Of a stretch of 64,000 bases of DNA, positions 3,361 through 44,802 are shown piece after piece. The position numbers and the translations under genes were made by a program. The notes beneath the pieces were generated by a model, which made no database searches, was not told where the DNA came from, and saw only the letters and a list, made by a program, of their open reading frames with translations. The DNA comes from Armatimonadota bacterium (GTDB lineage: Bacteria; Armatimonadota; DASRZA01): the NCBI GenBank assembly GCA_035686845.1, contig DASRZA010000252.1, positions 2,101-66,100 of the forward strand, given 5' to 3'. Numbering within the stretch: position 1 is the stretch's first letter; every line of letters begins with the position of its first letter.

Positions 3361-3387
3361 CGAACCTTTTTGCATTTCATACGTTAC
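3361..3387 (+). promoter_or_regulatory. putative ECF-type promoter (GAAC-N16-CGTT) in front of the ECF sigma gene
   Basis: GAAC at 3362-3365 and CGTT at 3382-3385 with a 16-nt spacer. Position is ~75 nt upstream of the ATG at 3461, matching autoregulated ECF sigma promoters (AAC-N16-CGT). Confidence 0.35.
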
Positions 3388-3460
3388 ACCATTTTATAGG
3401 CCGCGTGAGTTCTTGAGCTTCACGAGCTCATGCGTTACGAGGGGGCCGGAGTGAGGACGA

Positions 3461-4060
3461 ATGGAACCGCTTTCGGAGGATGAAGAGGACATCCAGTTGA
3501 TGCTTCGGACGCGAGATGGGGACTTAGACGCGTTCTCCATCCTGTTTCACCGGCATCGGAAATGGGTGGAGCAGTTCCTGTACCGCCTCTTCTGGCGCCG
3601 GGAGAAGGCGGAAGATGGAACGCAAGAGGTGTTTATGCGGCTCTGGTCGGCACGCGCCGGTTATCGTCCATGCGCTCGTTTCACCACGTTTCTCTATCAG
3701 GTGGCGCGCAATTACTGGCGCGACGAAATGCGCAAGGCGCAGGTCCGGCCGGTTGAGGTGGATCTGGACGCCGGCGACGATAGCGGCGCCATCCGCCGGG
3801 AGCTTAGAGCGCCGTTCAGCGCCGAGCCACAAGAGCGTCTTTTCGAGAAGTACCGGCAGTGGCGAATCCGGCAGGCTATCTCGCGGCTTCCCGAACCATA
3901 CCGTATCGTCTTCGTGCTGGCGCATTTTGAAGACCGTCGGATTTCAGAGATCGCCGCCATTTTGGAAATCCCGGAGGGTACCGTCAAATCGCGGCTTCAT
4001 ACCGCCGCCCGCCGGCTGCGAGATTGGCTGATGTGCGAGGAGAAAACGGGGATGTGGTAA
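3461..4060 (+). CDS. RNA polymerase ECF-type sigma-70 factor
   Basis: Region 2 (DAFSILFHRHRKWVEQFLYRLF...AEDGTQEVFMRLW) and region 4 HTH (RIVFVLAHFEDRRISEIAAILEIPEGTVKSRLHTARRRL). Confidence 0.85.
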   Translation: MEPLSEDEEDIQLMLRTRDGDLDAFSILFHRHRKWVEQFLYRLFWRREKAEDGTQEVFMRLWSARAGYRPCARFTTFLYQVARNYWRDEMRKAQVRPVEVDLDAGDDSGAIRRELRAPFSAEPQERLFEKYRQWRIRQAISRLPEPYRIVFVLAHFEDRRISEIAAILEIPEGTVKSRLHTAARRLRDWLMCEEKTGMW

Positions 4061-4168
4061 GCGAAGGGTATGTCGCTACTATCAATCGATGATTCGCTTG
4101 GTCGGCGAACCATTCTTAGCGGGGCCGGCTTTCTTGTTCCGGCTGCGCCGCATTGAAGGGGGAGCAAA

Positions 4169-5533
4169 ATGAAATGTGATGAGGCGGCAGGTTTTCTGGT
4201 GGCGTACGCCCGGGGTGAACTCGAAGCGGCCACAAAAATCGATCTCGAGGAGCATCTTGGTCGCTGCGCAAACTGTGCACGGGAGCTGGAAGATTCGCGC
4301 CGTGTGCTGGCAATCACCCGGCTCGCGAACGATGAATCAACCATCAAACCGGCCTCCGAGATCATAATGGCCGCCGTCGAACGAGACGCCAGTGATATTC
4401 ACATCGAGGTGGATTATCGTGAAGGGGTTCGCGTCCGGCTGCGGGTTGATGGTGTTCTGCATGAGTTCCGTCCTCAGTATCCGCTGGAGAAGGAGCAGGG
4501 GAAACCACTGGTGGCGCGCTTTAAGCTCATGGCCGGCTGCAATGTCGATGAGAATCACGCGCCTCAGGAGGGCCGGATCCCGTTCCAGACGAAGGATGGC
4601 AGACGGTTTGACGTTCATATTTCATTCGCGCCGAATATCAACGGGGAAAGCGTGGTGATGCGGATCGTGGATCGGGTCAGCGTTCTTGTTGGGCTTGACC
4701 GCCTCGGCTTTCACCCCGAAGCCCTCGAACGCTTGCGTGCGGTCATCCGGCGGCCGACAGGATTGGTCGTCGTAACCGGTCCGACGGGGTCTGGCAAAAC
4801 GACGACGCTCTACTCGATCATTCAAGATGTCGCCGTTCCCGAGGTCAAGGCGCTCACGATCGAAGACCCGGTGGAATTCGATTTACCGGGCATCGTTCAG
4901 ATTGGTGTCGATGAGAAAGCGGGAATGACGATTCCGACCGCGCTCAGATCGGCGACGCGCCAGGATGCGGACATTATTATGGTGGGCGAAATCCGGGACG
5001 CTGAATCGCTGGCGATCTCGGTTGAGCTGGCGCTCTGGGGACACCTTGTGCTTATCTGCATGCACGCTCCCAACGCGCCTTATGCGCTCGGTCGATTGGA
5101 GGATATTGGCGTTGTGCCGATCGCTTTGGCATCCGCTGTGACGGGTGTTCTGGCGCAGCGGCTGGTGCGAACTATCTGCCCGGATTGCAAACAGCCCTAT
5201 GAACCGTCTGCCGCCGTTCTCGAGGCGCTGACGATCACGGCGCCAGGTGGCGTATTTTATCGCGGCGCCGGCTGCGCCTCATGCCGGCAGTCGGGGTTTA
5301 AGGGCCGCACCGGCGTCTTTGAGCTGCTGATTGTGGACGACGCGGTTAGAGAGCTTATCACGCGGCGCGCGGGTCTCCGGGAGATTCGGGCAGCCGCCAT
5401 CGCCGCCGGCATGTCAACGCTGCGCGAAGAAGCGACTCGACTCGTTCAAGAGGGTATCACCTCAGTTGAAGAGGCGGTTCGTCTCATTGCGGGAATCGGA
5501 TATCCGATGAGCGGCGGACCCGCGTTTGAGTAA
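4169..5533 (+). CDS. fusion protein: N-terminal zf-HC2 anti-sigma-factor zinc finger plus complete GspE/PilB-family secretion ATPase
   Basis: Residues ~1-55: H-x3-C-x2-C (EEHLGRCANCAREL) typical of zf-HC2 anti-sigma factors, immediately downstream of an ECF sigma gene. From ~residue 60: ASDIHIE...VRLRVDGVL, Walker A VVTGPTGSGKTTTLYS, Walker B LTIEDPVEF, Asp box RQDADIIMVGEIRD, His box GHLVLICMHAPN, tetra-Cys CPDC...CASC. SD GAAGGGGGAG 4 nt before the ATG. Confidence 0.75.
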   Translation: MKCDEAAGFLVAYARGELEAATKIDLEEHLGRCANCARELEDSRRVLAITRLANDESTIKPASEIIMAAVERDASDIHIEVDYREGVRVRLRVDGVLHEFRPQYPLEKEQGKPLVARFKLMAGCNVDENHAPQEGRIPFQTKDGRRFDVHISFAPNINGESVVMRIVDRVSVLVGLDRLGFHPEALERLRAVIRRPTGLVVVTGPTGSGKTTTLYSIIQDVAVPEVKALTIEDPVEFDLPGIVQIGVDEKAGMTIPTALRSATRQDADIIMVGEIRDAESLAISVELALWGHLVLICMHAPNAPYALGRLEDIGVVPIALASAVTGVLAQRLVRTICPDCKQPYEPSAAVLEALTITAPGGVFYRGAGCASCRQSGFKGRTGVFELLIVDDAVRELITRRAGLREIRAAAIAAGMSTLREEATRLVQEGITSVEEAVRLIAGIGYPMSGGPAFE

Positions 5534-5728: not shown

Positions 5729-6169
5729 ATGCGGTCGAAGCTGATCAACACGGTTAATAGGGATGGACAGCGCACCTTTGCGCTCATTTTTGAGACGGGG
5801 GATGAAGTGCAGGAGGGGCTGATGCGGTTCGCCACGGAACAGCGGCTGACCGCCAGCCACTTCACGGCAATTGGCGCCTTCAGTGACGTTGTCCTCGGTT
5901 ATTTTGACTGGCAGACCAAAGAGTACAAGAAGATCCCCGTGCGCGAACAGGTGGAGGTCCTCTCACTCGTAGGCGATATCGCGTGCGAGAGCGGAAAGCC
6001 GAAGATTCACGCGCACGTGGTCGTAGGGAAGTCGGATGGCAGCACGCGAGGCGGCCACTTGATGGAGGGCCACGTGCGTCCCACTCTTGAGGTTATCTTA
6101 GAAGAATCGCCGGCGTACCTTCAGCGGGAGAAGGATCCGGAGAGCGGCCTCGCGCTTATCAAGATATGA
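5729..6169 (+). CDS. PPC/DUF296 domain protein (PD1-like predicted DNA-binding protein)
   Basis: Pattern F..G.E......F........A...AIG......LGYFD...KEY......E.LSL.GDI...GKP..HAH...G..DG...GGHL.......TLEV matches the PCC/DUF296 fold. SD GGAGG upstream. Confidence 0.55.
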   Translation: MRSKLINTVNRDGQRTFALIFETGDEVQEGLMRFATEQRLTASHFTAIGAFSDVVLGYFDWQTKEYKKIPVREQVEVLSLVGDIACESGKPKIHAHVVVGKSDGSTRGGHLMEGHVRPTLEVILEESPAYLQREKDPESGLALIKI

Positions 6170-6232: not shown

Positions 6233-7447
6233 ATGCCGAGAGACATCGAACGAATCGAGCGTATCCAGGAGACCCTCCGCTCCAACGAACTGGATGGGTT
6301 TATCTGCGCGCTGCCGGCGCACGTGCTAATGCTATCCGGGTACTGGCCGGTGATTGGCACGTCCATCGCGCTCGTTAGTGAGGCCGGGGAAATCGCGCTG
6401 GTCGTACCGGAGGACGAGGAAGCGCTGGCTCGATCGGGGTGGGCCGACCATATCTTTACCTTCCAGCCGGGATCCCTTCGCCGTATGATCTCAACGTCGG
6501 AGGCGGCGCAGGATTCGCTGGCGCGAGCTGCCCGTGCCCTTAGCATTGAGCGCGGTCGAGTTGGATGTGAAATGGGCGCCGCGTCCGAGCCTGCTTCGTA
6601 CGTGGGAATGTACCTGTACGGCGCAACAATGCCGGGTCTGCTCAATCGGGCGCTGCCAGGGTTAAAGTCGGTCCCGGCCGGGCCGCTGTTCGACTGCCTG
6701 GGAGCAGTCAAGACCGCCCCGGAGATTGAGCGCATCCGGACCGCTTGCCGGATCGCCGGGAGCGCCTTTTTAGAAGCCACTCGGAGCCTGCGTCCAGGAT
6801 TGAGCGAGACGGCGGCTGCGGCGCTCTTCCGGCTGCCGCTGAGTACCGATGACGTGGACATTATGGACCGCGCCGATGGCTTTGTTTTCTGTATGTCGGG
6901 CCGTAATGGCGCCGAGGCGTACGCGGCGTTCCAGCGATCCCGTGCCGGAAAGACGCTCGAGCTGGGTGAATTGGCTCTGGTTCATTGTAACTCTTACATG
7001 GACGGCTTCTGGACCGATGTCACTCGCACTTACTGCCTGGGAGCGCCCGACGATCGGCGCCAGCGGATGTACGAAGCCGTCTTTGACGCACGCGCCGCCG
7101 CGCTGGATGCGATACGGCCCGGAGCGCGGGCCTCGGAGGTTGATAAGGCGGCCAGAGATCTGCTGCAGGACCGGGGCTACGGAAGAGAGTTCAAGAACCC
7201 GACCGGACACGGTGTAGGATTCACCGCGATTGACCATAACGCGCCGCCGCGACTGCATCCTTGCTCGCCGGATACGCTCGAAGAAGGAATGGTATGCAAC
7301 GTGGAACCGGCGATTTATATCGAAGGATATGGCGGCCTTCGTCACTGCGACGTTGTGGTTGTGACACGTTCCGGCGCTGAGGCGCTGACCCCGTTCCAGG
7401 CTGACCTCGAGCAGTTGATCATAGACCCGGTGACCGGCGAACCCTAG
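6233..7447 (+). CDS. M24-family Xaa-Pro aminopeptidase/prolidase (creatinase-N plus M24 domains)
   Basis: C-terminal M24 metal-ligand region HGVGFTAIDHNAPPRL...NVEPAIYIEGYGGLRHCDVVVVT. N-terminal creatinase/prolidase-like domain. Confidence 0.75.
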   Translation: MPRDIERIERIQETLRSNELDGFICALPAHVLMLSGYWPVIGTSIALVSEAGEIALVVPEDEEALARSGWADHIFTFQPGSLRRMISTSEAAQDSLARAARALSIERGRVGCEMGAASEPASYVGMYLYGATMPGLLNRALPGLKSVPAGPLFDCLGAVKTAPEIERIRTACRIAGSAFLEATRSLRPGLSETAAAALFRLPLSTDDVDIMDRADGFVFCMSGRNGAEAYAAFQRSRAGKTLELGELALVHCNSYMDGFWTDVTRTYCLGAPDDRRQRMYEAVFDARAAALDAIRPGARASEVDKAARDLLQDRGYGREFKNPTGHGVGFTAIDHNAPPRLHPCSPDTLEEGMVCNVEPAIYIEGYGGLRHCDVVVVTRSGAEALTPFQADLEQLIIDPVTGEP

Positions 7448-10199: not shown

Positions 10200-11345
10200 T
10201 TACCGGTTTTTCGCGCTGAGCTCTCGGTAGAGCCGGTCGTATCGCTCTAAGAATTGGGAAAGGGTGTAATCTCTCGCCACGAGTCGCTGGCCGTTTTCGC
10301 CCATCCTGCGGGCATCATCGGGCGCGGCGAGGAGACGTGAGACGCTGCCGACCAGCGCCTCGGGATCGGCGGGGGGCGATAATAGCCCATTCTGGCCGTG
10401 CTGTACAATGTCCTGGCAGCCGGCCACCGCGGTCACGGCGCATGGCAGCCCCCATGACATCGCTTCCAGAAGCGCATAGGGAAAGCCCTCCCACAGGGAC
10501 GCCATCGCGAAGGCGTCAGCGGCCTGGTAGGCAGCGCCCGGGTCCGCCAGGTAGTCGATGTAATGGAACGCGGAACCGAGCGACCGGCTCGCGGCAGCAA
10601 GAGCCTGGTCCTTCAACTCACCATCCCCTACCCATAGAAAATGGGCGTCGGGGAAGCCGTGGCGAACGGCGGCGGCCATGCGAATCCAGTCCAGCGGCGC
10701 CTTCTGCGCTCGAAGGTGGGCCACGCAAACAATCAACGGTCCGTCCTTCGGCAGGCGAAGCCGACGCCGGCTCTCCTCTCGCTCACGCGGGCCGGTCGGA
10801 ATCACGACACCATTCGGAATCATGCGGAGCCGACCAGCGGTTATCAGCCGGGCACGGCGGATCTCACGGGCCTCCGTCGGCGAGACAGCGACGATGGCGG
10901 TACTCAAGAACCCGCCAAATCGTTCGATCGTCCGGTAGATCGCCTGCTCCGCTGCCGGCATTCCGGAGTGAAATGGCAGCGAATGTGGCGAATAGATGCG
11001 GATCGGGACGCCGGCGGCCACTCCCGCCACTCGTCCCAAAATCCCGGCCTTGGCGCTGTGGCAGTGGATGATCTCAGGCCGCTGTTCGCGCAGCAGCGCA
11101 ATAATCCGGAGGAGAGCCCGCGCGTCCGCGAGTGGGGCAGCCTGGCGGCGCATCGGAATCACATCGATGCGGTGTCCGGCTTCCCGGAGCCGTCCGGCCG
11201 CCGCCGGCGCCCGCTTATCCCGACCCGTTGAGACGATGGCGCTCTGATCCCACTGCGGAAGCCCCGTCAAAAGCTCGGTGAGGTGCCGCCGGGTCCCGCC
11301 GGTGAACGCCTCCAGAATGTGAACAATGCGCCCGCGCTGCATCAT
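10200..11345 (-). CDS. glycosyltransferase family 4
   Basis: GT4 C-terminal motif EGFPYALLEAMSWGLPCAVTAVAG...NGLL and N-terminal GT-B Rossmann region. Confidence 0.8.
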   Translation of the reverse strand: MMQRGRIVHILEAFTGGTRRHLTELLTGLPQWDQSAIVSTGRDKRAPAAAGRLREAGHRIDVIPMRRQAAPLADARALLRIIALLREQRPEIIHCHSAKAGILGRVAGVAAGVPIRIYSPHSLPFHSGMPAAEQAIYRTIERFGGFLSTAIVAVSPTEAREIRRARLITAGRLRMIPNGVVIPTGPREREESRRRLRLPKDGPLIVCVAHLRAQKAPLDWIRMAAAVRHGFPDAHFLWVGDGELKDQALAAASRSLGSAFHYIDYLADPGAAYQAADAFAMASLWEGFPYALLEAMSWGLPCAVTAVAGCQDIVQHGQNGLLSPPADPEALVGSVSRLLAAPDDARRMGENGQRLVARDYTLSQFLERYDRLYRELSAKNR

Positions 11346-11440
11346 AGAGCCGCCTTCGGGAGATCGTGCGAGATATCACATTCAGCCGAGCGAACGCGTC
11401 CGGGAACTGAAGGTGCGATATCGGCTGTCCCCTATGATTC

Positions 11441-13468
11441 CTACCACGGCGCCATCGCGAGCATAATGAGGCGGCGGATGAGGGGCCAGAGCCGGCGCTC
11501 GAGGACCTGCAAAACAGTTTGCAGCTCTGCGATTTTGAGCCAGTACGCCGTAAGCGCGAAGGCGAAAAGGGCCGGCGCGGCGCAAGCCAGGAAAATGATG
11601 ACGGCTTTTCGTTTGCTGCCCGACTTCTTCGGCTTTTTTGTGGTTACCGGATGCGTCCCGGTCTTGCCCCCGACCGGACTGGTGATTGATGGATTAGTGG
11701 TTGTCGGGATCGTGACGGCCGAAGTCGCTGCGGCGGCCCGCATGGGTCGAAGCGTTGTCTCGGGCCGGTGATAAACGAACTTCAACGTCGCCCAGAGGAC
11801 CACGATCATCACGAAAGTCGCGACGGCCATCCGCGCGATAAAGCTGACGAGGCCTTTTAGATCGAGCCCTTCTAACCGCGGCGCGAGAACGCCCACAAGG
11901 ATAAAGTCTTTCACGGTTTTGGAGGCGGTGAAGGCGAGCGCCACACCGGTGGCGCCCCAGAGAAAATAGCGAGTCCCGAAATAGGCGACCAGCAGGTAAA
12001 CCACGAATGTGCCGTACGCGATAATCGTCGGAGTTTTGGTGTCCGACATGGAGAAGTAGATTTGCAGGATGACCGTTTCAATCCCTAGGGGCAGCATTCC
12101 GAGTGAGGACCAGACGAGCGGACCCACCACGCGGCCGGCATCGCTCGCCGTGAACTTGCCGCCAAGATAGACCGTCTCCACCATCGGATGCGCGAGCATA
12201 ATGTAAACGACAGTAATCGGGACCATCAGGAAGGTGATCATCTGCAGCGCCGAGAGCAGCGCCTGGCCCAGGCGGCGCCGATCACCCCGCGTGGCCATTT
12301 CGGCGAGAAAGGGGAAGAGCGCAATCGCCAGTGCGTACGGGATAAGCAGGAAAGGGAGGTTGGTCAGCTTGGTGGCAAACTTGAGCGCGGCGACTTGCGA
12401 TGATGCCCCGCTAAAGTAGATATCCAGCACCGGACGAACCGATGAGAGCAGGTTGCCCAACATCAGCGGGACCATGAGAATGAGCAGTTTCTTAAACGCG
12501 GGATCCTGAACATCCAGGCTCCATCGCAGCAGCCGCAGCCGAGGGCGCAGCCCGAAGAGGTGAACCGCCAGCTTTATGCATCCGCCGAGAACCAGGCCGA
12601 TGGCGAAAGCGTCGATTCCGATCCAGCGCCAGAGGGCGAACCCCCCGATGACAATGCCGGCCTTGAGAGCGGTATCGGCGAATGCCGGAAGCGCAAACTC
12701 CTTATAGGCGTTCAGCACCACATACGTGAGCGACGCGACGCTCATCGTGATCGCCGCCGGGAGCATGATCCGGAGCAAGTGAGTGGTGAGCGCCATTTCG
12801 CCTGCGGTAAATCCGTGAGTGATCCGGCCGACTATCTGCCGCGCGAAGAGCTCGGCCAATCCCACTACAAGCAGGAGCACGAGGATCTGGATAATGCCGA
12901 CGATGCTCGCCAGCTTCCAGGCGCTCTCTTCACCTCGCTTCTCCTTGCTCTCGACAAATGGGGGGAGGAACGAATGGGTGAGAAGCTGTTCGCCAAAACC
13001 GAAGATATTCCAGACGACGGTTCCGGCGGCGAAGTAGGATCCCGATATGCTCCCGCCGCCAAAAAAACGGGCGACCAGCCAGGCTTCCAAAAAACCGAGC
13101 ACGCGACCGAGCGCAGTGAAACCCGTGATGGCAAAGGAAGCTTTGCCCACCCGCTCCCGATGTCCGCCATCCCTCCGGCCATCGCCTTTGATCGCGCCGT
13201 TGGAAGCGCCGGCGCTCTCTGCCCGAGATTGGTCAACAACGTTGTCGAAGCCGTCCTCACCAGGCGCCAGCGTTGGCTGCTGATCGCTCCCTTGCGGAAT
13301 CACGTCGGGCGGATCGGGTACGATCGGATTGATCGGAGTCGGAGTCGGTTCGTCCGCGCGGGGACTGGCGCCATCCTCTGGGCGTTCTGACAAATGACTA
13401 CCTCTGCCTTGATCGATGGCGCGGATTTGCAGGGCTTCCCACCGGCCGCGTGATTGTCCGGACTTCAA
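11441..13468 (-). CDS. murJ: MurJ/MviN-family lipid II (or polysaccharide) flippase with low-complexity N- and C-terminal extensions
   Basis: Core LGRVLGFLEAWLVARFFG followed by ~14 TM helices typical of MviN/MurJ. ~100-aa Pro/Gly-rich N-terminal extension and a C-terminal extension with an extra TM (true start may be internal). Confidence 0.7.
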   Translation of the reverse strand: MKSGQSRGRWEALQIRAIDQGRGSHLSERPEDGASPRADEPTPTPINPIVPDPPDVIPQGSDQQPTLAPGEDGFDNVVDQSRAESAGASNGAIKGDGRRDGGHRERVGKASFAITGFTALGRVLGFLEAWLVARFFGGGSISGSYFAAGTVVWNIFGFGEQLLTHSFLPPFVESKEKRGEESAWKLASIVGIIQILVLLLVVGLAELFARQIVGRITHGFTAGEMALTTHLLRIMLPAAITMSVASLTYVVLNAYKEFALPAFADTALKAGIVIGGFALWRWIGIDAFAIGLVLGGCIKLAVHLFGLRPRLRLLRWSLDVQDPAFKKLLILMVPLMLGNLLSSVRPVLDIYFSGASSQVAALKFATKLTNLPFLLIPYALAIALFPFLAEMATRGDRRRLGQALLSALQMITFLMVPITVVYIMLAHPMVETVYLGGKFTASDAGRVVGPLVWSSLGMLPLGIETVILQIYFSMSDTKTPTIIAYGTFVVYLLVAYFGTRYFLWGATGVALAFTASKTVKDFILVGVLAPRLEGLDLKGLVSFIARMAVATFVMIVVLWATLKFVYHRPETTLRPMRAAAATSAVTIPTTTNPSITSPVGGKTGTHPVTTKKPKKSGSKRKAVIIFLACAAPALFAFALTAYWLKIAELQTVLQVLERRLWPLIRRLIMLAMAPW

Positions 13469-13534
13469 ACCCGGAGGCTAAATCGTGAGTATTTCGCAGC
13501 GGCGCATTCACGTTCATTACCTTCGGCTGTTGGT

Positions 13535-14752
13535 TCATCTCCCCGCCAACTCCTCTTGCAATATTTTCATCAACGGATCGGCGCTCCGGTTAAATTGGCG
13601 CTCCACCCGGTCACGTCCCACCCTTGCCAGCGACCGGCGCTCCTCCGGGCGGTTGAGAAGCCGGCCGATTTCGTCGGCGAGCGATTCTGGGTCATCCGGT
13701 GGAACCAGTCGCCCCGTCTCGCCATGCGAAATCAATTCCGTAATGGCGCCCACGGGCGTGGTCACCACCGGAACCCCGCACGCCAGCGCTTCAACCAGCA
13801 CGTTGGGCAATCCATCCTGATCCCCGTCCGCCGCCACACGGCAGGGCAACACAAAGAGCGCCGCCCGCCGGTAAGCCGCCAGCGCCCCAACCTCGTCACA
13901 CGCGCCCCTCATGAATACCCGATCTTCGAGCGCCAGGTTCCGAATTAGGTTCTCAAGCGCGGTCCGGTCCGGCCCGTCGCCCAGTATCTCGCACTCAAAC
14001 GCGACTCCTCGATCTCGTAAACGAGCGCAGGCCCGGATGAGCGCGTCAATCCCCTTCTTCGGAACTAAACGGCCGATAAAGAGCAGAGCCGGCGGCCCGG
14101 TGTTACCGGGACTTCCGGGCGCAAACCGTTCCAGATCCAGCGTATGGTATACCAGATGGATATGCTCGTCCGAAATTGCAAAACGGCTGCTGACCAGGCG
14201 GGCGCTCTCCGCCGTACAGGTTAAGACGAACTGCGCCGCGGATACGTTTCCCGCATAGAATGGGTCCAGACGCCGCAGATCGCTGCCATGAACCGTGATA
14301 CTAAAGGTTACCCCGAGAAGGCGCGCCGCAACCCGGCCTACAAGAGCCGGAGCGCCCAAAAAGTGGGAGTGGACATGACGTACACCCGCATTGCGGAACA
14401 GCCCGGCTGCCCATGCCGCCGATGGCAGTAAACTCCGGAGCGTACGCAATTCCGGATGCCCCATTCCCTCCCTGATCGCCCTGATCGCCTCGCGCCAGAA
14501 TAAGGGCCGCAGCAGATTGGGACCCGCAGTCTGCCAGAACTCCAGGCGCCAGGGTGAAGGTCGATAGTGGGTTGACCGGACCAGATCCTGCCATTCGGGG
14601 CGGACTTCGATCGGCCGATGAAGCGCCGCGACGCTGATGCGGGAGCCTTCTGCTCGTAGCCGTTCAATCTCCCGCAGAATAAATGTCTCCGAAACAGCCG
14701 GAAACCGGTCCAGCAGGTATCCGATATGCGGAAGCGCAGCCCTCTTACTCAT
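13535..14752 (-). CDS. glycosyltransferase family 4 (WcaL-like)
   Basis: N-terminal IGYLLDRFPAVSETFILREIERL and C-terminal GT4 motif DGLPNVLVEALACGVPVVTTPVG. Confidence 0.8.
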   Translation of the reverse strand: MSKRAALPHIGYLLDRFPAVSETFILREIERLRAEGSRISVAALHRPIEVRPEWQDLVRSTHYRPSPWRLEFWQTAGPNLLRPLFWREAIRAIREGMGHPELRTLRSLLPSAAWAAGLFRNAGVRHVHSHFLGAPALVGRVAARLLGVTFSITVHGSDLRRLDPFYAGNVSAAQFVLTCTAESARLVSSRFAISDEHIHLVYHTLDLERFAPGSPGNTGPPALLFIGRLVPKKGIDALIRACARLRDRGVAFECEILGDGPDRTALENLIRNLALEDRVFMRGACDEVGALAAYRRAALFVLPCRVAADGDQDGLPNVLVEALACGVPVVTTPVGAITELISHGETGRLVPPDDPESLADEIGRLLNRPEERRSLARVGRDRVERQFNRSADPLMKILQEELAGR

Positions 14753-14779
14753 GTCGCTTATTCTATCACAGGCTCCGGC

Positions 14780-15931
14780 TCAGGCTCCCGCATCCTCGAC
14801 TGCCTGCCATACCACCGCGGTCGTGCGCTCCCAGATAAAACGACGAGCGCGCTCGAGACCAGCGGCGTTAAGCCGGTCCCTGAGCGATGGGTCGGTTAAT
14901 ACCTGCTCCAGCGCGCGGGCGAACGGCTCTGGTGAACCCTCCGCCAGGACCGCGGCGTCTTGCAGATTCTCACGCAGCGCCGCGCCGTTAACGCCGACGA
15001 CCGGAGTCCCGCACGCCATCGCCTCCAACGGCGGTATCCCAAAGCCTTCTGCGGTCGAAGGCTGAGCGAGGAGCGCGGCTTCGCGATAGAGATCCACCAG
15101 CCGCTCGGTCTCCACGTAACCGAGGAACCGCACCCTCTCGGCAATCCCGAGCCGGGCCGCGATTTCAACTAATTGCGGCCGCAGCCCGCGATCTTTGCCG
15201 GCCAGGATCAGTGTTAAGTTCGGCTGCCGGGCGAACAAATTCCCGCAGGATTCTATCAAGAGACGGAGGCCCTTTCGCTCCTCGAGATTGCCAACATAGA
15301 GGATGTAGGGAACGACGCCAGGCTCATTACTCTGCGCGTCCCGCGGTGTGAACCATGGATCGACGCCGAGCGGCGCCACAAACGCGCGGCGTCCAAATCG
15401 CCGCTCCACTTCGAGCTGCACGGCTCGAGTGGGCGTGATAAGCGCACGGGCCCGCCGGATGGTGGGCGGCAGGAGCAGCCGGTAGTGAAGATAGTTCTCC
15501 AACCGGGTCTGCCTCAGATTCAGCCCATGGAGATCATGAACGAAGGTTACGGCAGGGCAGGGGGAGAGCAGTGGCATGACGTACGCCGGACAAAACAAAA
15601 CGTCGGCGCGCCACCGCCGCAAGATCCAGGGCAGTTCCACCTGCTGCCAAAAGATGCGGCGCATCCGGCGCGCGCCGGAGAACGGAAGAAAACAGGCGCG
15701 GGACGCGGGGCGCGGGGCGTGCGGCGCCGGGCGCGGGGCGCGGGGCGCGGGGTTGCTGTCGTCCGTCCTCCGTCCTCCGTCCTCCTCGAACCCGGGCCAG
15801 TCACCGGGGACGAAGATCCGTATTTGATGGCCGCGCGGGTCTGCGAGGAGCCGGCGGATCACGCGGTCGGCGGTCTTCTCCACGCCCGAGTAATGTCCCC
15901 AGAGGACGCTCCCGTCAATGGCGATCTTCAT
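14780..15931 (-). CDS. glycosyltransferase family 4 carrying an in-frame 34-codon low-complexity insertion encoded by heptanucleotide repeats
   Basis: GT4 motif EGFGIPPLEAMACGTPVVGVNGAAL. The N-terminal domain is interrupted by FEEDGGRRTDDSNPAPRAPRPAPHAPRPASRAC, encoded by 15692-15793. Confidence 0.75.
   Translation of the reverse strand: MKIAIDGSVLWGHYSGVEKTADRVIRRLLADPRGHQIRIFVPGDWPGFEEDGGRRTDDSNPAPRAPRPAPHAPRPASRACFLPFSGARRMRRIFWQQVELPWILRRWRADVLFCPAYVMPLLSPCPAVTFVHDLHGLNLRQTRLENYLHYRLLLPPTIRRARALITPTRAVQLEVERRFGRRAFVAPLGVDPWFTPRDAQSNEPGVVPYILYVGNLEERKGLRLLIESCGNLFARQPNLTLILAGKDRGLRPQLVEIAARLGIAERVRFLGYVETERLVDLYREAALLAQPSTAEGFGIPPLEAMACGTPVVGVNGAALRENLQDAAVLAEGSPEPFARALEQVLTDPSLRDRLNAAGLERARRFIWERTTAVVWQAVEDAGA
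15692..15795. repeat. heptanucleotide-periodic repeat tract ((GCGGGGC)~7 then (CTCCGTC)3) inside the GT4 coding sequence
   Basis: ~13 consecutive 7-nt units in register: gcggggc x2, gtgcggc, gccgggc, gcggggc x2, gcggggt ... gtccgtc, ctccgtc x2. Total length keeps the reading frame. Confidence 0.7.
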
Positions 15932-15957
15932 AGGAGTTCAGAGCGCCTCATGGTACC

Positions 15958-17094
15958 TCATCCGATCACGACTCGATAAAGCTGTTCGACGCGGCGCGCG
16001 TGTAAGGTGGAAGAATAATGGGATTCGGCGCGCTGGCGGCCAGCCGCCCCCATCGCCCGGCGTCGGCTGGGGTCTCCAGCAAGCGCTAAGATCGCGGCGC
16101 TGAGGGCCGCCGTATTTCCCGGGGGGATAAGAAGTCCCGTCTCGCCATCGACGACGGTTTCGGCCGCGCCCCCGGCGCCGGCCGCGATGACGGGCACGCC
16201 ACATGCCATCGCTTCAACCGGAACGCGTCCGAATGCCTCATCAGCGGCGGGGTGAATGAGTAGATCCAGCGCGGATAACAGCGTAGGCACGTCTCGAATC
16301 CAGGGCATAACTCGACCGATGCCGGCTAGTTCCGCTGCGTACCGTTCCCGCAGCGCCGGCCCTTCTCCAGGGGGCGGAGCGCCGCAGAGAATAAAGAAGA
16401 GGCGCGGGTCTCGCTTCGCGGCTTCTTTCGCGGCCGCGAGGAAATGCTCGACGCCTTTCCACGGAACCCACTGGCCAATCATACCGGCGATGATGCCGTC
16501 AGTGGGAAGCGTGAGCGACCGCCGCGCCGCGATGGAATCGGCCGGTCGGAATCGGGTCAAATCGATGCCATTGGGGATCATGCTCACCGGGCGATCGGGG
16601 TGACCGGGCAGGAATCGCCAGGAGCGGGCTGAATCCTGCAGCCGCCGCACCACCGCATCCGAAGGAGCGATGCAGCGATGTGAGAACGCCGCCGCAACCC
16701 CGTCGAATCGCTCTGATCCCGCGAGATCTCGCGCGTGCCAGATAAGCGGGACGTGCAGACAGGTTGCGGCGATCCGGGCGGGGATCCATGCCGCACGACC
16801 GTTTGCATGAATGATCGCCGGGCGTGCATTCAGGGCTGCGAGGGCGAGGCGCGCTCCGGCGATAACCGTCTGGCCCACCAGAAAAGCGGCGCCGGCCGGC
16901 CCGCGGGAGCGGGCGCTCGAAACCGGCAGACAAAGAGGAATCCAGCAGGCCGAAGGCGCCATGCGGGCAATTAGCGGCGGCCCGGCCAGCCACGGTTCCC
17001 AGGCCGCCTTATCTAACTCTTCAATAAGACCGGCAAGACTTTGCTGCGCCCCGCCCGGAAACGGCGCTGCGTCTACGTACAGGATTCGGAACAT
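15958..17094 (-). CDS. glycosyltransferase family 4
   Basis: GT4 motif DEAFGRVPVEAMACGVPVIAAGAGGAAETVVDGETGLLI. Confidence 0.8.
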   Translation of the reverse strand: MFRILYVDAAPFPGGAQQSLAGLIEELDKAAWEPWLAGPPLIARMAPSACWIPLCLPVSSARSRGPAGAAFLVGQTVIAGARLALAALNARPAIIHANGRAAWIPARIAATCLHVPLIWHARDLAGSERFDGVAAAFSHRCIAPSDAVVRRLQDSARSWRFLPGHPDRPVSMIPNGIDLTRFRPADSIAARRSLTLPTDGIIAGMIGQWVPWKGVEHFLAAAKEAAKRDPRLFFILCGAPPPGEGPALRERYAAELAGIGRVMPWIRDVPTLLSALDLLIHPAADEAFGRVPVEAMACGVPVIAAGAGGAAETVVDGETGLLIPPGNTAALSAAILALAGDPSRRRAMGAAGRQRAESHYSSTLHARRVEQLYRVVIG

Positions 17095-18056
17095 AATTCC
17101 TGAATCCAGACAAGAGTTTCACGGACGACCTCTCGCTTCCAGGCAAGAGAATAGAAGGCGTGATTGGAACCCTCCACAACGTGAATCCGTGCGTGTTCGA
17201 CGAAAGCGGCGCCGACACGGGCGTAATAATCGATCGACTCCTGCCTTTCGGGATCGGCGCCGCCGTAAACGAAGAGCGCCGGGGTCGTGAGCGTCGAAAG
17301 CGCCAGTTCGTACGTCCGTTCATCGGGCTTTGGTCCGGCCCAGTCGGTCTCAGCCGTGGAACCGGCGCTCGCGCCTCGCAGTTTCCGCGCGTCGCCTCCC
17401 TTCAACACTCTTAAAATCGTGCGCGGTTGGAGCTGCCCATGCGCCAGTTTGGCCCAGGTCCGGGAATCGAAGAGCCGGGCGCCATAGACCTTAAGCAGGC
17501 TGATCAGCCTGCGCTTCGATCGTGTGGACCGAACGGTTGGGGCAGTCGCGCCGCTGTCCGACGCAGGAACCGGGTCGGGGTGAAGCGGAGGCGGGGACCA
17601 GAGCGCCATACCGGAGAGCGCCGAGATCCCCGGGGCCGCGCCCAGGGCGACTTGCGCTCCAGCGCAGATTCCGATCAGCAGGATTGACTCAACCCCCGTT
17701 TTCTCGCGGAGGTATTGCGCGGCGGCGCGGGTATCCTCGACCATTGTTCCGATGTGCGCTGATCGCTGCTCGCCACCGCTATCCCCGCGGCCGCGAAAAT
17801 CAAAACGGAGAGCGGGGAAACCGGCCGCCGCAAGCACCCGTGCCATCGACACCAGAATGCCGTGCGGGCCAACGCGTGTTCCCGACCAGCCGCCGAGCAG
17901 CACGACGCCAACCGTCTTCCGCGCGTCCGGTTTTCGAGGGTTCGTCGGAAAGGGCCGGTGTATTATCCCATAAACCGGCAGCGTGGATTTCTCGCCCACG
18001 CCAAAGCAGACCAGGTCCTCAGCGATCGCGGTGTGCTCGGGGAGAGCCGTGGTCAT
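17073..18056 (-). CDS. alpha/beta-fold hydrolase with a Cys in the nucleophile-elbow position (G-I-C-A-G)
   Basis: Alpha/beta hydrolase core VVLLGGWSG...LIGICAGAQVALGAA. Start ATG (18054-18056) overlaps the stop of the upstream HEAT gene (ATGA). Confidence 0.6.
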   Translation of the reverse strand: MTTALPEHTAIAEDLVCFGVGEKSTLPVYGIIHRPFPTNPRKPDARKTVGVVLLGGWSGTRVGPHGILVSMARVLAAAGFPALRFDFRGRGDSGGEQRSAHIGTMVEDTRAAAQYLREKTGVESILLIGICAGAQVALGAAPGISALSGMALWSPPPLHPDPVPASDSGATAPTVRSTRSKRRLISLLKVYGARLFDSRTWAKLAHGQLQPRTILRVLKGGDARKLRGASAGSTAETDWAGPKPDERTYELALSTLTTPALFVYGGADPERQESIDYYARVGAAFVEHARIHVVEGSNHAFYSLAWKREVVRETLVWIQELCSESCT

Positions 18057-19186
18057 TGCCGCAATTCCTTTTCTGGAAGCTTTGATTCCAGGCCCAGCGC
18101 GTTCGCGGCCGCAAGGCGAACCCGCGCGTCTCGATCTTTCTCCGCCACCGTCTTGAGCCGGTCTTTCACTTCCTGATCGGGAAAAAGAGCCAGCGCCTCC
18201 ACGCAGGCTGCCCGGATTGTCGCCACCTGATGAGAAGTTTTCGCGAGAAGAGCCGCTCGCGCCTCGGGAAGACGGAGTGTCGCGATGGCTGCGGCGAGCG
18301 CCGCCGCCAACTCTCGGGGCGCTTTCTCGAGTCGATCAATGAGCGGGGGCAGCGCTGCAGGATTGCGGGTGCGTCCCATCGCGAGCGCCGCGCCGCCGGC
18401 AAGAAACCGGTTCTCGGAGTCGAGGTAGGGGATCAGGAACTCCATCGCGCGAGGATCGGCCAGGCTTACAAGCGAATTCATGGACTCTACAATAATATCC
18501 GCGTCCGCGTTCGGATGAAGACGCAGCATTAGCGCTAGCGGCACATTCCCCGCCGGGTCGCCCAAAACGCCGATCGCCTTTGCCGCCGCTCGGCCGGCGG
18601 GAAGCGCATCGGCGCCGAAGGGCGCGTCCAGGCCGGCTTCAAAAAGGAGCAGCGAAATATCCAGCAGCGCGCCGGGCGGCCGGATCTGCGCCAGGGCCAG
18701 CGCACAGCTCCCACGAAGCGGAATCGCCGTGTCCGCCGGCCCCATTCCCACCATTTCTATCTGAACTGTTCTTAAGCCCAAACGCAGCGCCTCGTCGGCC
18801 TTAAGATAAGCCATATTACCGAGCGCAATGGCGAGCTCAATTCGCACCGCGCAGCCGGCGTCACGATGCTCGCCGTCTTTGGATGCCCAGAAAAAGTGAT
18901 CAATCATCGCGTCGGCGATCTCGGGCGACGCCTGCTTCACGAGCGCACGGGCAGCCGAGGCGCCAACGTAGCTCAACCGGTCCCTGAGCGCCTCGACAAG
19001 CCAGGGCGTGGCCGTCGGCGCCCCGATCCGCTCAAGTTCAGCGATGGCGCGCAGGCGATCTTCAGCGTAACGCGATTTCAAGGCATGTGTCGCGCACTCA
19101 AGCGACGGTCCCGCGTTCCTGTTTCGACACTGCGCCGACCTTCTCACCGCTCGTTCCCGTCCACCGGGGAATCTTGCGCAAGCCAT
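18053..19186 (-). CDS. HEAT-repeat (PBS lyase-like) protein
   Basis: Repeated ~30-aa units with LxxALxD, AAxALGxLG and RVRLAAANALG patterns. Start uncertain (overlaps the upstream hydrolase gene by ~40 nt). Confidence 0.6.
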   Translation of the reverse strand: MACARFPGGRERAVRRSAQCRNRNAGPSLECATHALKSRYAEDRLRAIAELERIGAPTATPWLVEALRDRLSYVGASAARALVKQASPEIADAMIDHFFWASKDGEHRDAGCAVRIELAIALGNMAYLKADEALRLGLRTVQIEMVGMGPADTAIPLRGSCALALAQIRPPGALLDISLLLFEAGLDAPFGADALPAGRAAAKAIGVLGDPAGNVPLALMLRLHPNADADIIVESMNSLVSLADPRAMEFLIPYLDSENRFLAGGAALAMGRTRNPAALPPLIDRLEKAPRELAAALAAAIATLRLPEARAALLAKTSHQVATIRAACVEALALFPDQEVKDRLKTVAEKDRDARVRLAAANALGLESKLPEKELRQ

Positions 19187-19998
19187 CCTGCCGTCAGCTC
19201 AAGGATCTCCGGGCAATCCACCAGCCCGAGCAGGTTCCAGAACGGCTGCGCGGTGACATGATCCAGGCGAGTTGGAACGCCGCTTGATTCAAGGGCGCCG
19301 GCCAGCGTAACGCAGGGTGCGGAGGCCCGTGTCCCGGCGCTCACCGAAATAATGAGCGCGCTGCCGGGCCATCCGGCAGGCGCCGCAGCATCCAACGCTT
19401 CGATCTGATTCCAGGCAGCCTGAGCGACCGGATAGCCGTCGAAATCAAAGATCTCATCGGTGGTCGGAAGAGCCGGCTCGGCTGCGGCGCCTGCGTTGAT
19501 CATCTGACGGATCGACTTTCTGCGAATATTCATGCGCACATAGCTTCGGCCATTCGTAACGGGCTCCCAAAGCGCCAGCCGGTCAACGCCGGCCGTTTGG
19601 GGAGCGGCGCGAAGCGCAAGTGCGCCGCCGAGGCGCAGACCGAAGAGTGAAAGTGGCGCGTCGGGAAATCGCACGCGAGCGAACAGGAGCGTCCGGGCGA
19701 TATCGTCCAGAGCGGTCTCGACCGTGAACATCGAGAAATCGCCTTCGCTGTCGCCTGTCCCCATGTAACCAAACCGTATCGAGGCGATGTCGCGCTTCGC
19801 TAACTTCCGCGCCAGCTCAACATAGAGGCGCCTTGAGCACTTTTCTTCTTCCGCAAACGGTGGGCAATAAACCACCACCCGCCGCGGCGGGACTACCCTC
19901 CCGCTTTTATCGACCGCTTCGTGGATCATCGTCCACTGCCGTGGCGGCCCGAGCCATATCATCCGCTCGGGTGTCATCTCGGGGATTACTTCCAGCAC
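19144..19998 (-). CDS. alpha/beta-fold hydrolase-like protein lacking a Ser nucleophile (G-L-R-L-G-G elbow)
   Basis: Fold-typical order VVVYCPPFAEE...FGYMGTGDSEGDF...LFGLRLGGALAL. The nucleophile position is occupied by Arg. Confidence 0.5.
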   Translation of the reverse strand: MLEVIPEMTPERMIWLGPPRQWTMIHEAVDKSGRVVPPRRVVVYCPPFAEEEKCSRRLYVELARKLAKRDIASIRFGYMGTGDSEGDFSMFTVETALDDIARTLLFARVRFPDAPLSLFGLRLGGALALRAAPQTAGVDRLALWEPVTNGRSYVRMNIRRKSIRQMINAGAAAEPALPTTDEIFDFDGYPVAQAAWNQIEALDAAAPAGWPGSALIISVSAGTRASAPCVTLAGALESSGVPTRLDHVTAQPFWNLLGLVDCPEILELTAGWLAQDSPVDGNER

Positions 19999-22749: not shown

Positions 22750-23900
22750 TTAACTCGCTGGCTGTGATTAGCCGCCGTTCAAGTTCCCATTTTGACTGGG
22801 ATTCGGGAGAGTTTGAGAACGTATTGCCCTTCGCAGGGAGATCATCTCCGGTTGGCGCAGTGGTGTCCATCGAGTCGATACGTTGACTTCCAATTGTGTA
22901 GGACTCGTATACGAGCACGTATTCTATAGTAGCATTCCCCAAGACGCGAAGCCGCAAAAGAACGCCGCGGCGGGGTAAACGCCAGAGCGCACCCGACAGA
23001 CTGCTGGCTTCACAGGCGGGAGCGCTGCTGCAATTGGTCTCTCAGTTGTCGCAGCTCGTCCAGGCTCATTGATTGCAGCGATGCTTCCGGTGTCGCCTCG
23101 TCCCCAAGCGAAGACTGAAGGAGTAGAACCTGGCCAATCAACATACCCTGCTGGAGCCCCTGCTGCAGCCCCTGTTGGAGCGCGTGTCTCATTCGGGCGT
23201 TCTCGTCTCGCCGCATCTTTTCGCGGCCTTCATAGATCTCCCGTTCCAGGTCTCTCTTTGAAAGCACCATCAGTTCCTCCACTGCCTGCCGGATCGCTTC
23301 GTCGTCTATCGTCGCCGGCAGCGCCTTCTCATCTAATGTTTCCCCATGCTTCAGAAAGTACAGCCACTGGTCTATCTCACTCTCCAGTTCTTCCGCTCCC
23401 TTGTTGAACTTCGCCAACTCAAAGAGGTGGATATCCAGATCCTCCGTGAACACTGCTCCGGTGGCGCGGTCGATCAGCCCGAACCGCGAGTGATACACCT
23501 TTCCCGGAAAGATTGTTCCATCGACGAAGCAAACTGAGATCGTGGGCTGAAGCAGACTGTAGTCCCGGCCGGCTGGGAGCTGTTCGGTATACAGCTTGGA
23601 CCAATAGAACATTATCCGCTGGGGCAGCTCCGCAAACCCGATCATCTGCATCTCGACGTTGAAGTGTCGGCCAATCTGGTCCCGAGCCTTGATATCCAGG
23701 ATGGAGAGCTTCTCATCAAAAGCAGCCTTCTCGGTGAAAGGATTGAGGATTTCAATATGCACAATCCTCTGGCCTGGAGGCAGTTGGAGGACGGCGTTGA
23801 GCAGGTCGATCAGGAGGGCAGCAGTGGCGAGTCTGCCAAACAGCCACTTGAATGCAAAATCCACCTTGGGATCAATGCCAGAACTCATACTCGTCCCCGG
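22750..23900. mobile_element. lower-GC (~50-52%) islet carrying an Rpn-family nuclease/putative transposase gene
   Basis: Visible drop in GC relative to the flanks. Bounded upstream (24068-24205) by a composite repeat array. Confidence 0.35.
23010..23888 (-). CDS. Rpn-family recombination-promoting nuclease / PD-(D/E)XK putative transposase (TIGR01784-like)
   Basis: N-terminus DPKVDFAFKWLFG, ...LLIDLLNAVL..., IVHIEILNPF...LDIKARDQIGRHFNVEMQ match the YhgA/Rpn (transposase_31) family. Glutamine-rich C-terminal tail. Confidence 0.65.
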   Translation of the reverse strand: MSSGIDPKVDFAFKWLFGRLATAALLIDLLNAVLQLPPGQRIVHIEILNPFTEKAAFDEKLSILDIKARDQIGRHFNVEMQMIGFAELPQRIMFYWSKLYTEQLPAGRDYSLLQPTISVCFVDGTIFPGKVYHSRFGLIDRATGAVFTEDLDIHLFELAKFNKGAEELESEIDQWLYFLKHGETLDEKALPATIDDEAIRQAVEELMVLSKRDLEREIYEGREKMRRDENARMRHALQQGLQQGLQQGMLIGQVLLLQSSLGDEATPEASLQSMSLDELRQLRDQLQQRSRL

Positions 23901-36011: not shown

Positions 36012-36117
36012 CCATTTCAACATCGCCGCGAGCAGACGCTGCGGCTTGGATGGGAGAAAACTCGAGAGCCGATCGCGCGTTTCCGCCCGAATGTCGCTGG
36101 CATTCCTTCAGAAATTT

Positions 36118-36759
36118 TCACTGGCGGGGTTGAAATCGCACGTCGTTATTTCCAATCTGAGAGCTCTTGAAGTACTTCGTATGCCCGTCCACAAAGGTGA
36201 AGTCTGCGCCATCGCCATGCCGGGCGCTGAGACGGTCGAACCCGACAAGGAAGTAACCATCATTGGTGGTACTGATCGGGCCCGCGTTCTCCTCGCAGAA
36301 GAGGATGCAGTTGGCAGGGCTGCTGACGGCGGCCAGCGGGATTCCCGGATGGGGCTGGGGTGTGCCTTCAATCGAAAGCAGGCTGTTGATGGCGTAAGAC
36401 GCGCCGGCGTCATCCTGGTCATCGGGACAGGTGTAGACGTTCTTGTCTTTGACATAGGGGTAGAGGCCGCCCTGCGAGGGGTCGAATATCGTCGGGGCGC
36501 CGAACTCCGTGTAGTAAATCCAACCACCGCGAGCGCCATTGCCGGCCGAACCATCGGTGGCGTTTGGCAGTCGATCGTCATAATCCTGTGTGTACATGGT
36601 TACTGCGATGCCGAGTTGGCGAAGATTGCTGCTGCAGGAAGCACGGCGAGCAGACTCCCGAGCGGCGCTGAAGACGGGAAGCAAAATGGCGGCGAGAACG
36701 GCGATTATCGCTATGACCACCAGAAGCTCAATCAGCGTGAAACCGGACCGACGCCGCAT
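36118..36759 (-). CDS. DUF1559-family protein with prepilin-type N-terminal cleavage/methylation domain (H-X9-DG protein)
   Basis: [47 protein letters not shown] (class III signal / N-methylation site) and C-terminal [13 protein letters not shown] (H-x9-DG). Confidence 0.8.
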
Positions 36760-37466
36760 GGGTGCTACCTCCGTCGCTAATCCGCGCTCGCAGCCATTGC
36801 ATCAGCCCTATCGCCGCGATCCACCATCCTCGCTGGCCGCCGGCGCCCGACGAGCGCGACTCAACCTTTCGACACTCCACCCGGGGTAACCTTGTTGCCG
36901 CGCCGGAGTTCACGAAACGTACTCGGAATCTCTAAAATCCGCGCGGCGAGCTCTCCCCAGGCCGGGTAGAGTTTCTCCACTTGAAAACCGTAACCCTGCG
37001 AAGGCAGAGGGCGCTCCAGCCGCCGATGAAAGGGCGGGATCGCCAGTCGGTAGGAACTGGACCGCATTGTCAAGCCCTCATCGCGACAGTTTCACCCCAC
37101 TCGCGACCAGGTGACAACCAGCCCAATACTGAAGGCGCCAGCTGTCCCGAAATGCGCCGGCTCTATCTACGATGTCAGACGATCCAAGAACGAAAGATTC
37201 CAGAACCAATGAGGCCAGGCGGGGCCGCCTGGGCGCCGCGATAGCCTGGTGGGTGCTGCTGGCCACGCTCTGGATGGCGCTGGTCGATAAGAGCACACTT
37301 ACTGAAGTCATTGCAGGCATGGCGGCTGCGGCGATCGGCGGGGCCTTCGCGCCCCTGTCGCGGCATTGGGTGGCGCCCGCGGGAGGGTCCACACCGACCA
37401 TTCCCACCGATCCGCGCCTCCCGCCTCGAACGGACGCCGGGCGTCGATTAATCTCTGACCCCGTGG

Positions 37467-42549: not shown

Positions 42550-42551
42550 GA

Positions 42552-44784: not shown

Positions 44785-44802
44785 TTACCAATTAGTTAGC
44801 TC

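Follow-up and report, generated by a model that had tools for sequence, protein, structure and literature searches.

Pairs of a sigma factor of the extracytoplasmic function (ECF) type and an anti-sigma factor are a main route of bacterial signal transduction, and to our knowledge few soluble anti-sigma factors carry a recognisable sensor domain. SpoIIAB and RsbW are anti-sigma factors with a nucleotide-binding domain, whose ATP/ADP state decides which partner is bound, and in the FlgM/sigma-28 system sigma activity is tied to a secretion-type machine. ATPases of the PilB/GspE type are known as mechanical motors. A reclassification of the ECF sigma factors in 2021 recognised soluble anti-sigma factors in only 10 groups and expected more (PMC7826278). 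SpoIIIAA, a GspE-like ATPase, is described as needed for sigma-G activity (PMC2703783). Here we describe a locus in a 64,000-nucleotide (nt) stretch of a contig from an uncultured Armatimonadota bacterium, called the window below; positions refer to its forward strand unless the minus strand is named. The locus consists of an ECF sigma factor gene (3461-4060) and a gene (4169-5533) in which an anti-sigma domain is fused to a PilB/GspE-type ATPase core. With modest confidence, we regard the two genes as a self-contained, probably autoregulated ECF sigma/anti-sigma module in which the PilB-like core serves as a sensor and not as a motor.

The fusion gene is a single open reading frame (ORF) of 454 amino acids (aa). 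It lies on the same strand as the sigma gene and 108 nt downstream of it, and is preceded by a Shine-Dalgarno sequence of its own, as was said in the preliminary description of the locus; read directly from the sequence, this is AGGGGGAG (4157-4164), 4 nt ahead of the ATG. An identical protein is present at NCBI as HET6384433.1, 'GspE/PulE family protein [Armatimonadota bacterium]', with no other annotation. The two domains that had been read from the letters were both called by Pfam, zf-HC2 (PF13490) at residues 3-37 (E = 7e-6, 26.4 bits vs a cutoff of 22.2) and T2SSE (PF00437) at residues 54-438 (E = 3e-102). The canonical H-x3-C-x2-C motif noticed earlier at the N-terminus, HLGRCANC, corresponds to residues 29-36, and the fourth ligand comes from C3. 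The class I zinc-binding anti-sigma domain (4169-4327) thus defined by C3, H29, C33, and C36 covers residues 1-53 and three helices, and the four ligands were invariant across 22 aligned family members. These members were 27-56% identical to the window protein, with zero indels over residues 1-73.

The AlphaFold2 model of the 454-aa protein, made with the family alignment, had a mean predicted local distance difference test score (pLDDT) of 92.7 and a predicted template modelling score of 0.84, and contained no disordered linker. In this model the anti-sigma helices occupy residues 3-14, 20-32, and 34-53 at pLDDT >90, with the zinc motif where helix 2 meets helix 3, and the pLDDT at the junction with the ATPase core was 91-97. 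Judged from the model and the Pfam matches, the fusion protein appears to be soluble, without an evident membrane-spanning segment. The N-terminal profile matched RslA (3hug, 4e-7) and RsiW (5wuq, 6e-5), followed by DdvA, ChrR, and RsrA; the matched RslA and RsiW structures are those of anti-sigma factors solved in complex with their ECF sigma factors. In every test of sequence and context that could be run here, namely the zf-HC2 score, the H-x3-C-x2-C motif with an upstream ligand, the helical topology, and the adjoining ECF sigma gene, the N-terminal domain is that of a class I anti-sigma factor.

The sigma factor gene codes for a protein of 199 aa. The earlier reading of 3461-4060 as an ECF sigma gene agreed with the matches to Sigma70_r2 (1.7e-13), Sigma70_r4_2 (2.1e-15), and TIGR02937 (98 bits, cutoff 42.9). 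The product is an ECF (group IV) sigma factor, as it contains regions 2 and 4 only, is about 200 aa long, and scores above the cutoff of the superfamily model; none of the named equivalog models reached its own cutoff on this protein. The sigma proteins encoded beside seven other fusion genes were colinear with the window sigma and 36-64% identical to it. The sigma and fusion genes of the window share a reading frame, with starts 708 nt apart and two stops between them (TAA 4058 and TGA 4150).

It had been asked whether this architecture always stands beside an ECF sigma gene. We compared gene context in 12 further distinct loci and the window, and an orthologous ECF sigma gene directly adjoined the fusion gene in all 13. 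The sigma gene was upstream in 12 loci and downstream in one (L006). The stop and start codons of the two genes overlapped by 4 nt in five loci and by 11 and 14 nt in two others, and gaps of 1, 25, 48, and 108 nt separated them in four; in the twelfth locus with the sigma gene upstream, a 4-nt overlap was derived from coordinates only. The sigma neighbour was kept even in members that have no zinc ligands (L014 and L016). In addition, the pairwise distances of the sigma factors and of the anti-sigma domains were correlated (r = 0.56, Mantel p~0.0008), which is what co-inheritance or co-evolution of the two would be expected to give. Together with the RslA and RsiW matches, the constant adjacency and this correlation support the proposed sigma/anti-sigma pairing, and the sigma and fusion genes are probably co-transcribed. 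Neither of the flanking spacers contained a terminator-like site in a terminator scan, which gave about as many sites overall as shuffled sequence does. Beyond the sigma-fusion pair, no gene was conserved alongside in the 13 loci. The PCC/DUF296 gene (5729-6169), previously suggested to belong to the same module, was considered as a third component and rejected, having no counterpart downstream of the fusion gene in any other locus. Two loci, L015 (694-2212) and L017 (63-1344), contain a second, conventional pair of ECF sigma and zf-HC2 genes less than 7 kb from the fusion module.

The fusion is a recurring family, present in dozens of divergent lineages known from metagenomes. Among the 120 best homologues of the full protein, three shared the zf-HC2 and T2SSE combination (47-53% identity), and the others were canonical PilB/GspE proteins with PF05157. 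An exhaustive profile search with the first 100 residues was made against 1.84 billion representatives clustered at 50% identity, and about 50 among the best 150 representatives matched across the junction of the anti-sigma and N2 domains, most of them 435-460 aa long and starting at residue 1. The junction is thus neither a product of chance nor a misassembly, in agreement with the earlier reading of an ORF that runs on with no stop or frameshift. A word-indexed search with the N-terminal profile returned fragments only, and a search with the full-length profile was swamped by canonical PilBs. In the species-representative genomes, a search with a pattern from a narrower alignment gave a single locus, L004, which is not a member of the fusion family, and neither a cultured nor a representative genome with the fusion was found. 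The few members that could be named by cluster look-ups were from Armatimonadota, Chloroflexota, and 'uncultured Desulfobulbus'. The full set of zinc ligands was kept in 26/32 members. In a neighbour-joining tree, which is a distance tree only and in which the canonical sample is biased towards best hits, the canonical PilBs grouped together and the fusions fell into the complementary group, which was long-branched; this split would fit a single origin of the fusion with accelerated evolution afterwards.

Several proteins found along with the family were of unusual composition. P0230 (471 aa, from a JGI metagenome, with its C-terminus cut off) contains two Clp_N repeats (3.6e-26), then zf-HC2, then T2SSE; it has no Met at the usual start and so looks like a true triple fusion, a hint of a link to Clp-type adaptors or proteolysis. 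P0265 (634 aa) carries sigma region 2, zf-HC2, and a T2SSE domain with a fully degenerate Walker A in a single ORF. Its sigma region 4 appears frameshifted, so it is probably a sequencing error or a pseudogene and not a real sigma/anti-sigma fusion. P0382 (865 aa) and P0383 (827 aa) have two tandem T2SSE cores per chain and gave the top scores to the full-length family profile.

The anti-sigma domain of the fusion is followed by a 390-aa PilB/GspE-type core, which belongs to the PilT-like ATPase superfamily by its N2 and C-terminal fold and by the sequence model. Matches to PDB sequences were to PilB, GspE, and PilF (about 1e-93), and Foldseek aligned the model to PilF (5oiu) and PilB (5tsh) with target-normalised TM-scores of 0.91-0.94 and a root-mean-square deviation of about 2 Å. 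The N2 domain (4334-4681; residues 56-171) was delimited by alignment to the PilB of G. metallireducens (6olj) and holds R136, H150 (codon 4616-4618), and R165. Its first helix (residues 56-71) directly follows anti-sigma helix 3 in the model, and a separate fourth anti-sigma helix is not evident. The C-terminal ATPase domain (4706-5488; residues 180-440) contains the Walker A motif GPTGSGKTT (4778-4804), the Asp box EDPVE (4862-4876), the Walker B motif with the catalytic Glu, DIIMVGEIRD (4970-4999), the His box GHLVLICMH (5039-5065), and a four-Cys site (5177-5284). Two of these names had been exchanged in the preliminary description: IEDPVEF is the Asp box with E236, and DIIMVGEIRD is the Walker B motif, of an atypical form, with the catalytic Glu.

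We mapped the window protein onto G. metallireducens PilB (offset +121), with residue roles taken from PMC5424180. The window protein has K210/T211 of Walker A, E232 and the Mg-coordinating E236 (PilB E357) of the Asp box, G273-E274 of Walker B with the catalytic Glu, and H292/H299 (PilB H413/H420) of the His box. Also present are the arginine finger R165 (PilB R286), the inter-chain contact R334 (PilB R455), D277/E279 of pore loop 1, and C337/C340/C369/C372 of the four-Cys site. Two positions are replaced: H150 stands for the arginine finger R271, and W290 for T411, a contact between packing units. The core had been called complete, and this holds for the sequence boxes and the four-Cys site but not for these two residues. 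Both arginine fingers are reported to be completely conserved in PilT-like ATPases (PMC5424180), and position 150 is Arg in 30/32 family members and His in the window protein.

Catalytic residues were unevenly retained in the family. All eight were intact in just 11/32 full-length members; E274 was kept in 18, H299 in 22, and K210 in 26 (Lys to Arg in five, Lys to Ser in one). The hexamer-contact residue R334, R136, and every one of the four Cys were each kept in 31/32. The mean identity of the cores was 38% among fusions vs 57% among the sampled canonical PilBs, and of the positions conserved to 95% or more in canonical PilBs, 76% were retained in the fusion cores. The absence of the GspE N1 domain, noted at the outset, was evident in that PF05157 (T2SSE_N) did not match the fusion and was carried by 117/120 nearest homologues. 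On the fusion, the GspE and PilB equivalog models TIGR02533 and TIGR02538 scored 431.8 bits (cutoff 630.25) and 391.5 bits (cutoff 675.65), with alignments beginning only at model positions 77 and 155, respectively. These late starts and low scores indicate that N1/T2SSE_N is missing and that the fusion is an equivalog of neither. The core departs from GspE and PilB in three defining respects: it scores too low on the equivalog models, it has no N1 domain, and one arginine finger is replaced, with no partner genes found in the regions scanned.

An ECF-type promoter-like motif, GAACCTTTTTGCATTTCATACGTT (3362-3385), with -35 GAACC, N15, and -10 CGTT, lies 99 nt upstream of the sigma ATG. We examined 13 orthologous upstream regions, those of 12 sigma genes and that of the separately transcribed fusion gene of L006. 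GAAC(C/T) was found 42-99 nt ahead of the start codon in all 13, and was followed after 15-16 nt by CGT(T/A) in about nine of them, for example CGCGAACTTTTCTACTCCGGCTGCGTTCG in L001 and TGCGAACCTTTTTCTTATCTATCGCGTTCT in L009. The strict motif is expected 0.13 times per shuffled 64-kb window. The recurrence of GAAC(C/T)…CGT(T/A) upstream of these genes and the low expectation in shuffled sequence support an autoregulated ECF promoter, and the site at 3362-3385, initially described as AAC-N16-CGT, is presumed to have this function. A weaker second copy may be present in the sigma-fusion spacer at 4107-4133 (GAACCATTCTTAGCGGGGCCGGCTTTC), again from direct reading. It reads GAACCATTC…GCTTTC and is speculative because its -10 element is imperfect. 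L006 shows a similar arrangement, as a motif precedes its sigma gene and another its fusion gene. Speculatively, the copy in the window, whose 108-nt spacer is unusually long, may serve as an internal promoter from which the anti-sigma gene is transcribed. In scans of the 64-kb window and the loci, the promoter motif occurred only at the module itself; looser patterns gave 11 occurrences vs 16 expected in shuffled sequence.

We propose that the 454-aa fusion is the cognate anti-sigma factor and that its first three helices would hold the sigma factor as a zinc-binding class I domain. This domain stands in place of N1/T2SSE_N and runs, at fixed spacing, into the first N2 helix. The PilB-like N2 and C-terminal domains would be the sensory part, which probably still binds nucleotide and forms a hexamer. 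The signal may be the nucleotide-dependent closure between the N2 domain and the C-terminal domain, or else how the ring is assembled. Passed on by way of the rigid junction, it would reach the anti-sigma domain and set whether the sigma factor is held or released. Once released, the sigma factor would transcribe from GAAC(C/T)-N15-16-CGTT promoters, its own operon included. ATP turnover as a motor would not be the conserved function. The retention of structural and oligomer-contact residues, the decay of catalytic residues, and the fixed junction length favour a nucleotide-binding or oligomeric sensor or scaffold over a motor. It had been suggested that ATP hydrolysis or hexamer state gates release. 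The part concerning hydrolysis is weakened by the catalytic losses in the family, among them that of the catalytic Glu, and by H150; release by nucleotide binding or oligomeric state is possible.

Some of the results weigh against this proposal. The catalytically competent residue set is kept in 11/32 members, and nearly so in the window protein, so hydrolysis may matter in some lineages. Hexamer formation is suggested only by the conserved contact residues. Six of 32 members have no zinc ligands, and zinc or redox chemistry is thus not family-wide. The adjacency of the genes and their correlated distances also follow from simple co-inheritance, and a second target promoter was not found in the 64 kb. 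A more specific form of the idea, which is possible although we would not expect it to hold, is a PilB-type ring with up to six anti-sigma domains, in which nucleotide-driven states or docking on a filament platform load or release the ECF sigma factor. If true, this would be a new signalling principle, in which cellular energy or the state of a pilus or secretion machine is passed on to an ECF regulon; in members whose catalytic residues have decayed, the same switch would have reached a pseudo-ATPase stage.

A sensor with its own input is not the only way to read the fusion. The PilB-like core might instead dock on the platform (PilC/GspF) of a type IV filament or type II secretion system, replacing or competing with the real PilB, and the state of the machine (present, idle, or engaged) would decide whether the sigma factor is held or released, comparable to FlgM/sigma-28 and the flagellar export apparatus. 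We consider such a checkpoint unlikely. The core is most closely related to genuine PilBs from Armatimonadota and Eremiobacterota (45-48% identity), and it still has D277 and E279 of the pore loop, R334, and the four-Cys site. A type IV pilin-like gene, found by a motif scan, is also present in the window at 36118-36759 on the minus strand (N_methyl 7e-10; DUF1559/SBP_bac_10 9.5e-16), two similar N_methyl/DUF1559 genes lie 4-5 kb upstream of the L006 fusion gene, and polysaccharide and envelope genes occur in the wider surroundings of both. However, the N1 domain, which binds GspL/PilM, is absent. PilC, PilM, PilN, PilO, and secretin genes were adjacent in none of the 13 loci, and no platform, GspL/PilM, or secretin gene and no pilin or pseudopilin operon was found in the other 12 flanks. 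Pfam scans of nearly all ORFs of at least 150 aa in the 64 kb gave no PilC/GspF, PilM/N/O, secretin, or prepilin peptidase. The statement that no pilus partners occur in the 64 kb agrees with these scans for PilC/GspF, PilM/N/O, and secretin, and has to be amended for the pilin-like gene. This gene is isolated, about 30 kb from the module, and overlaps a longer ORF of the opposite strand (36046-36780), for which Pfam gave no match. N_methyl/DUF1559 genes are numerous in these phyla, so their proximity means little. The zinc site offers another possible input, namely an RsrA-type redox switch in which oxidation of the Cys/His site releases the sigma factor and the ATPase is an effector or passenger freed to act. 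The C-x25-H-x3-C-x2-C site is complete and invariant in the 22 aligned members, with a spacing that we take to be that of RsrA (C11/H37/C41/C44). A thioredoxin gene (6947-7273, minus strand) is divergently upstream of the module in L009, and a gene for a DsbD-like thiol:disulfide protein (1-1930) is 7 kb from it in L018; both are weak hints of thiol-redox chemistry. Redox sensing is not a function of many zinc-binding anti-sigma factors, RsiW and ChrR among them, and the members without ligands still have the sigma neighbour and the ATPase. The fusion appears cytoplasmic, and zinc motifs are enriched in cytoplasmic anti-sigma domains (PMC7406223), but a redox switch leaves the fixed-spacing joining of a 390-aa ATPase core unexplained, and we judge it quite unlikely.

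It is very improbable that the protein is a pilus or secretion motor of the ordinary kind whose N-terminus has diverged, and for which the sigma factor would be the transcriptional regulator and the zf-HC2 domain incidental or directed at another partner. The T2SSE match is very strong, databases name the protein GspE/PilB, and the window protein retains all four sequence boxes. However, the equivalog scores are far under the cutoffs (432 vs 630 and 392 vs 676), the window protein is without one of the universally conserved arginine fingers, catalytic residues are substituted in two thirds of the family, and the partner genes were not found nearby. In addition, the N-terminal profile matches bona fide anti-sigma structures, and the sigma gene is translationally coupled in most loci. 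An 'orphan motor', offered as an alternative in the preliminary description, is made less likely by the catalytic decay. An artefact of assembly or gene calling, by which a small anti-sigma gene was joined to a truncated PilB gene, is effectively refuted. The window derives from a metagenome-assembled genome (MAG), and nothing else is in favour of this explanation. The colinear architecture of 435-460 aa occurs in dozens of independent assemblies from different studies, the junction is free of indels in 22 sequences, and the structure model is confident and continuous across the fusion. Taken together, we favour the sensor-type anti-sigma factor over these alternatives.

Several other features of the window and of related loci were recorded. 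Two large envelope/polysaccharide clusters are located on the minus strand at 10200-19998 and 41377-48559, and contain four or five GT4 glycosyltransferases, a MurJ-like flippase, a DegT aminotransferase, an NTP-transferase, an epimerase/dehydratase, a UDP-glucose/GDP-mannose dehydrogenase, and a UDP-GlcNAc 2-epimerase. The fusion gene of L006 is surrounded by genes for Wzy_C, a polysaccharide synthase, and glycosyltransferases. Two overlapping minus-strand ORFs (1003-2685 and 2528-2920), which lie just upstream of the module, both match Reg_prop (beta-propeller) repeats; they may be one gene split by a frameshift, or a gene with an alternative start. A transposase of the PD-(D/E)XK nuclease family (PDDEXK_2, 5e-59) is encoded at 23010-23888 on the minus strand and may mark a mobile element. 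The module was also considered as part of a defence system, and this was rejected, as PADLOC gave matches at the P-loop level only.

If confirmed, the sensor-type reading would define a new class of sensory domain for anti-sigma factors and would be a natural case of a secretion ATPase turned into a regulatory (pseudo)enzyme. It would also provide a compact two-gene system with a defined promoter for studying how nucleotide or oligomeric state gates a sigma factor. It would further correct the annotation 'GspE/PilB/TadA', by which too many pili and secretion systems are predicted in Armatimonadota, Chloroflexota, and related MAGs. The system is of interest to the ECF and type IV filament fields, although its mechanism is unproven. 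The architecture was first put forward as undescribed, and in the literature searched, which included the main texts of PMC7826278 and PMC7406223, we found no account of a fusion between an anti-sigma domain and a T2SSE ATPase.

The closest described systems each share a part of this arrangement. The class I factors RsrA, RslA, RsiW, and ChrR have the same H-x3-C-x2-C motif with an upstream Cys, the same three-helix N-terminal domain, and likewise a gene beside, and often overlapping, that of the cognate ECF sigma factor. They differ in what follows, which is a transmembrane helix and a periplasmic domain in RslA and RsiW, a cupin in ChrR, nothing in RsrA, and a 390-aa PilB/GspE core in the fusion, where the first N2 helix takes the position of the usual fourth helix. 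The fusion is similar to PilB, GspE, and PilF in its N2 and C-terminal domains, Walker A, Asp box, Walker B with the catalytic Glu, His box, four-Cys site, and R334. Unlike PilB and GspE, it has no N1/T2SSE_N domain, scores under the equivalog cutoffs, carries H150 for R271 and W290 for T411, has no platform or pilin operon nearby, and belongs to a family whose catalytic residues are decaying. The Pirellulaceae protein of L004 is a parallel with an enzymatic C-terminal part. In this uncultured Pirellulaceae MAG (CAZUAH010000208.1, 4302-7250), an ECF sigma gene is followed by a gene for a 751-aa protein with an N-terminal zinc motif, HLATCDSC, a kinase, and a membrane segment. It resembles the fusion in its N-terminal zf-HC2 domain and adjoining ECF sigma gene, but its enzyme is a Hanks-type Ser/Thr kinase followed by the membrane segment and not a hexameric ATPase.

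Other systems are comparable in concept. In SpoIIAB and RsbW, as in the fusion, anti-sigma function is combined with a nucleotide-binding domain. However, theirs is the unrelated GHKL fold; they act on group 3 sigma factors (sigma-F and sigma-B) through partner switching with an anti-anti-sigma factor, and have no class I domain. FlgM/sigma-28 and SpoIIIAA both link sigma activity to a secretion-type machine or ATPase, but FlgM is an exported protein without an ATPase, SpoIIIAA is not known to bind a sigma factor, and in neither case are an anti-sigma domain and an ATPase joined covalently. The N-terminal cyclic di-GMP domain of MshE and PilB (MshEN) indicates that the N-terminus of T2SSE ATPases is a slot for regulatory domains (PMC12943098). 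In MshEN proteins the ligand regulates the motor, whereas in the fusion a transcription factor is the predicted partner of the N-terminal domain, and motor function appears to be secondary.

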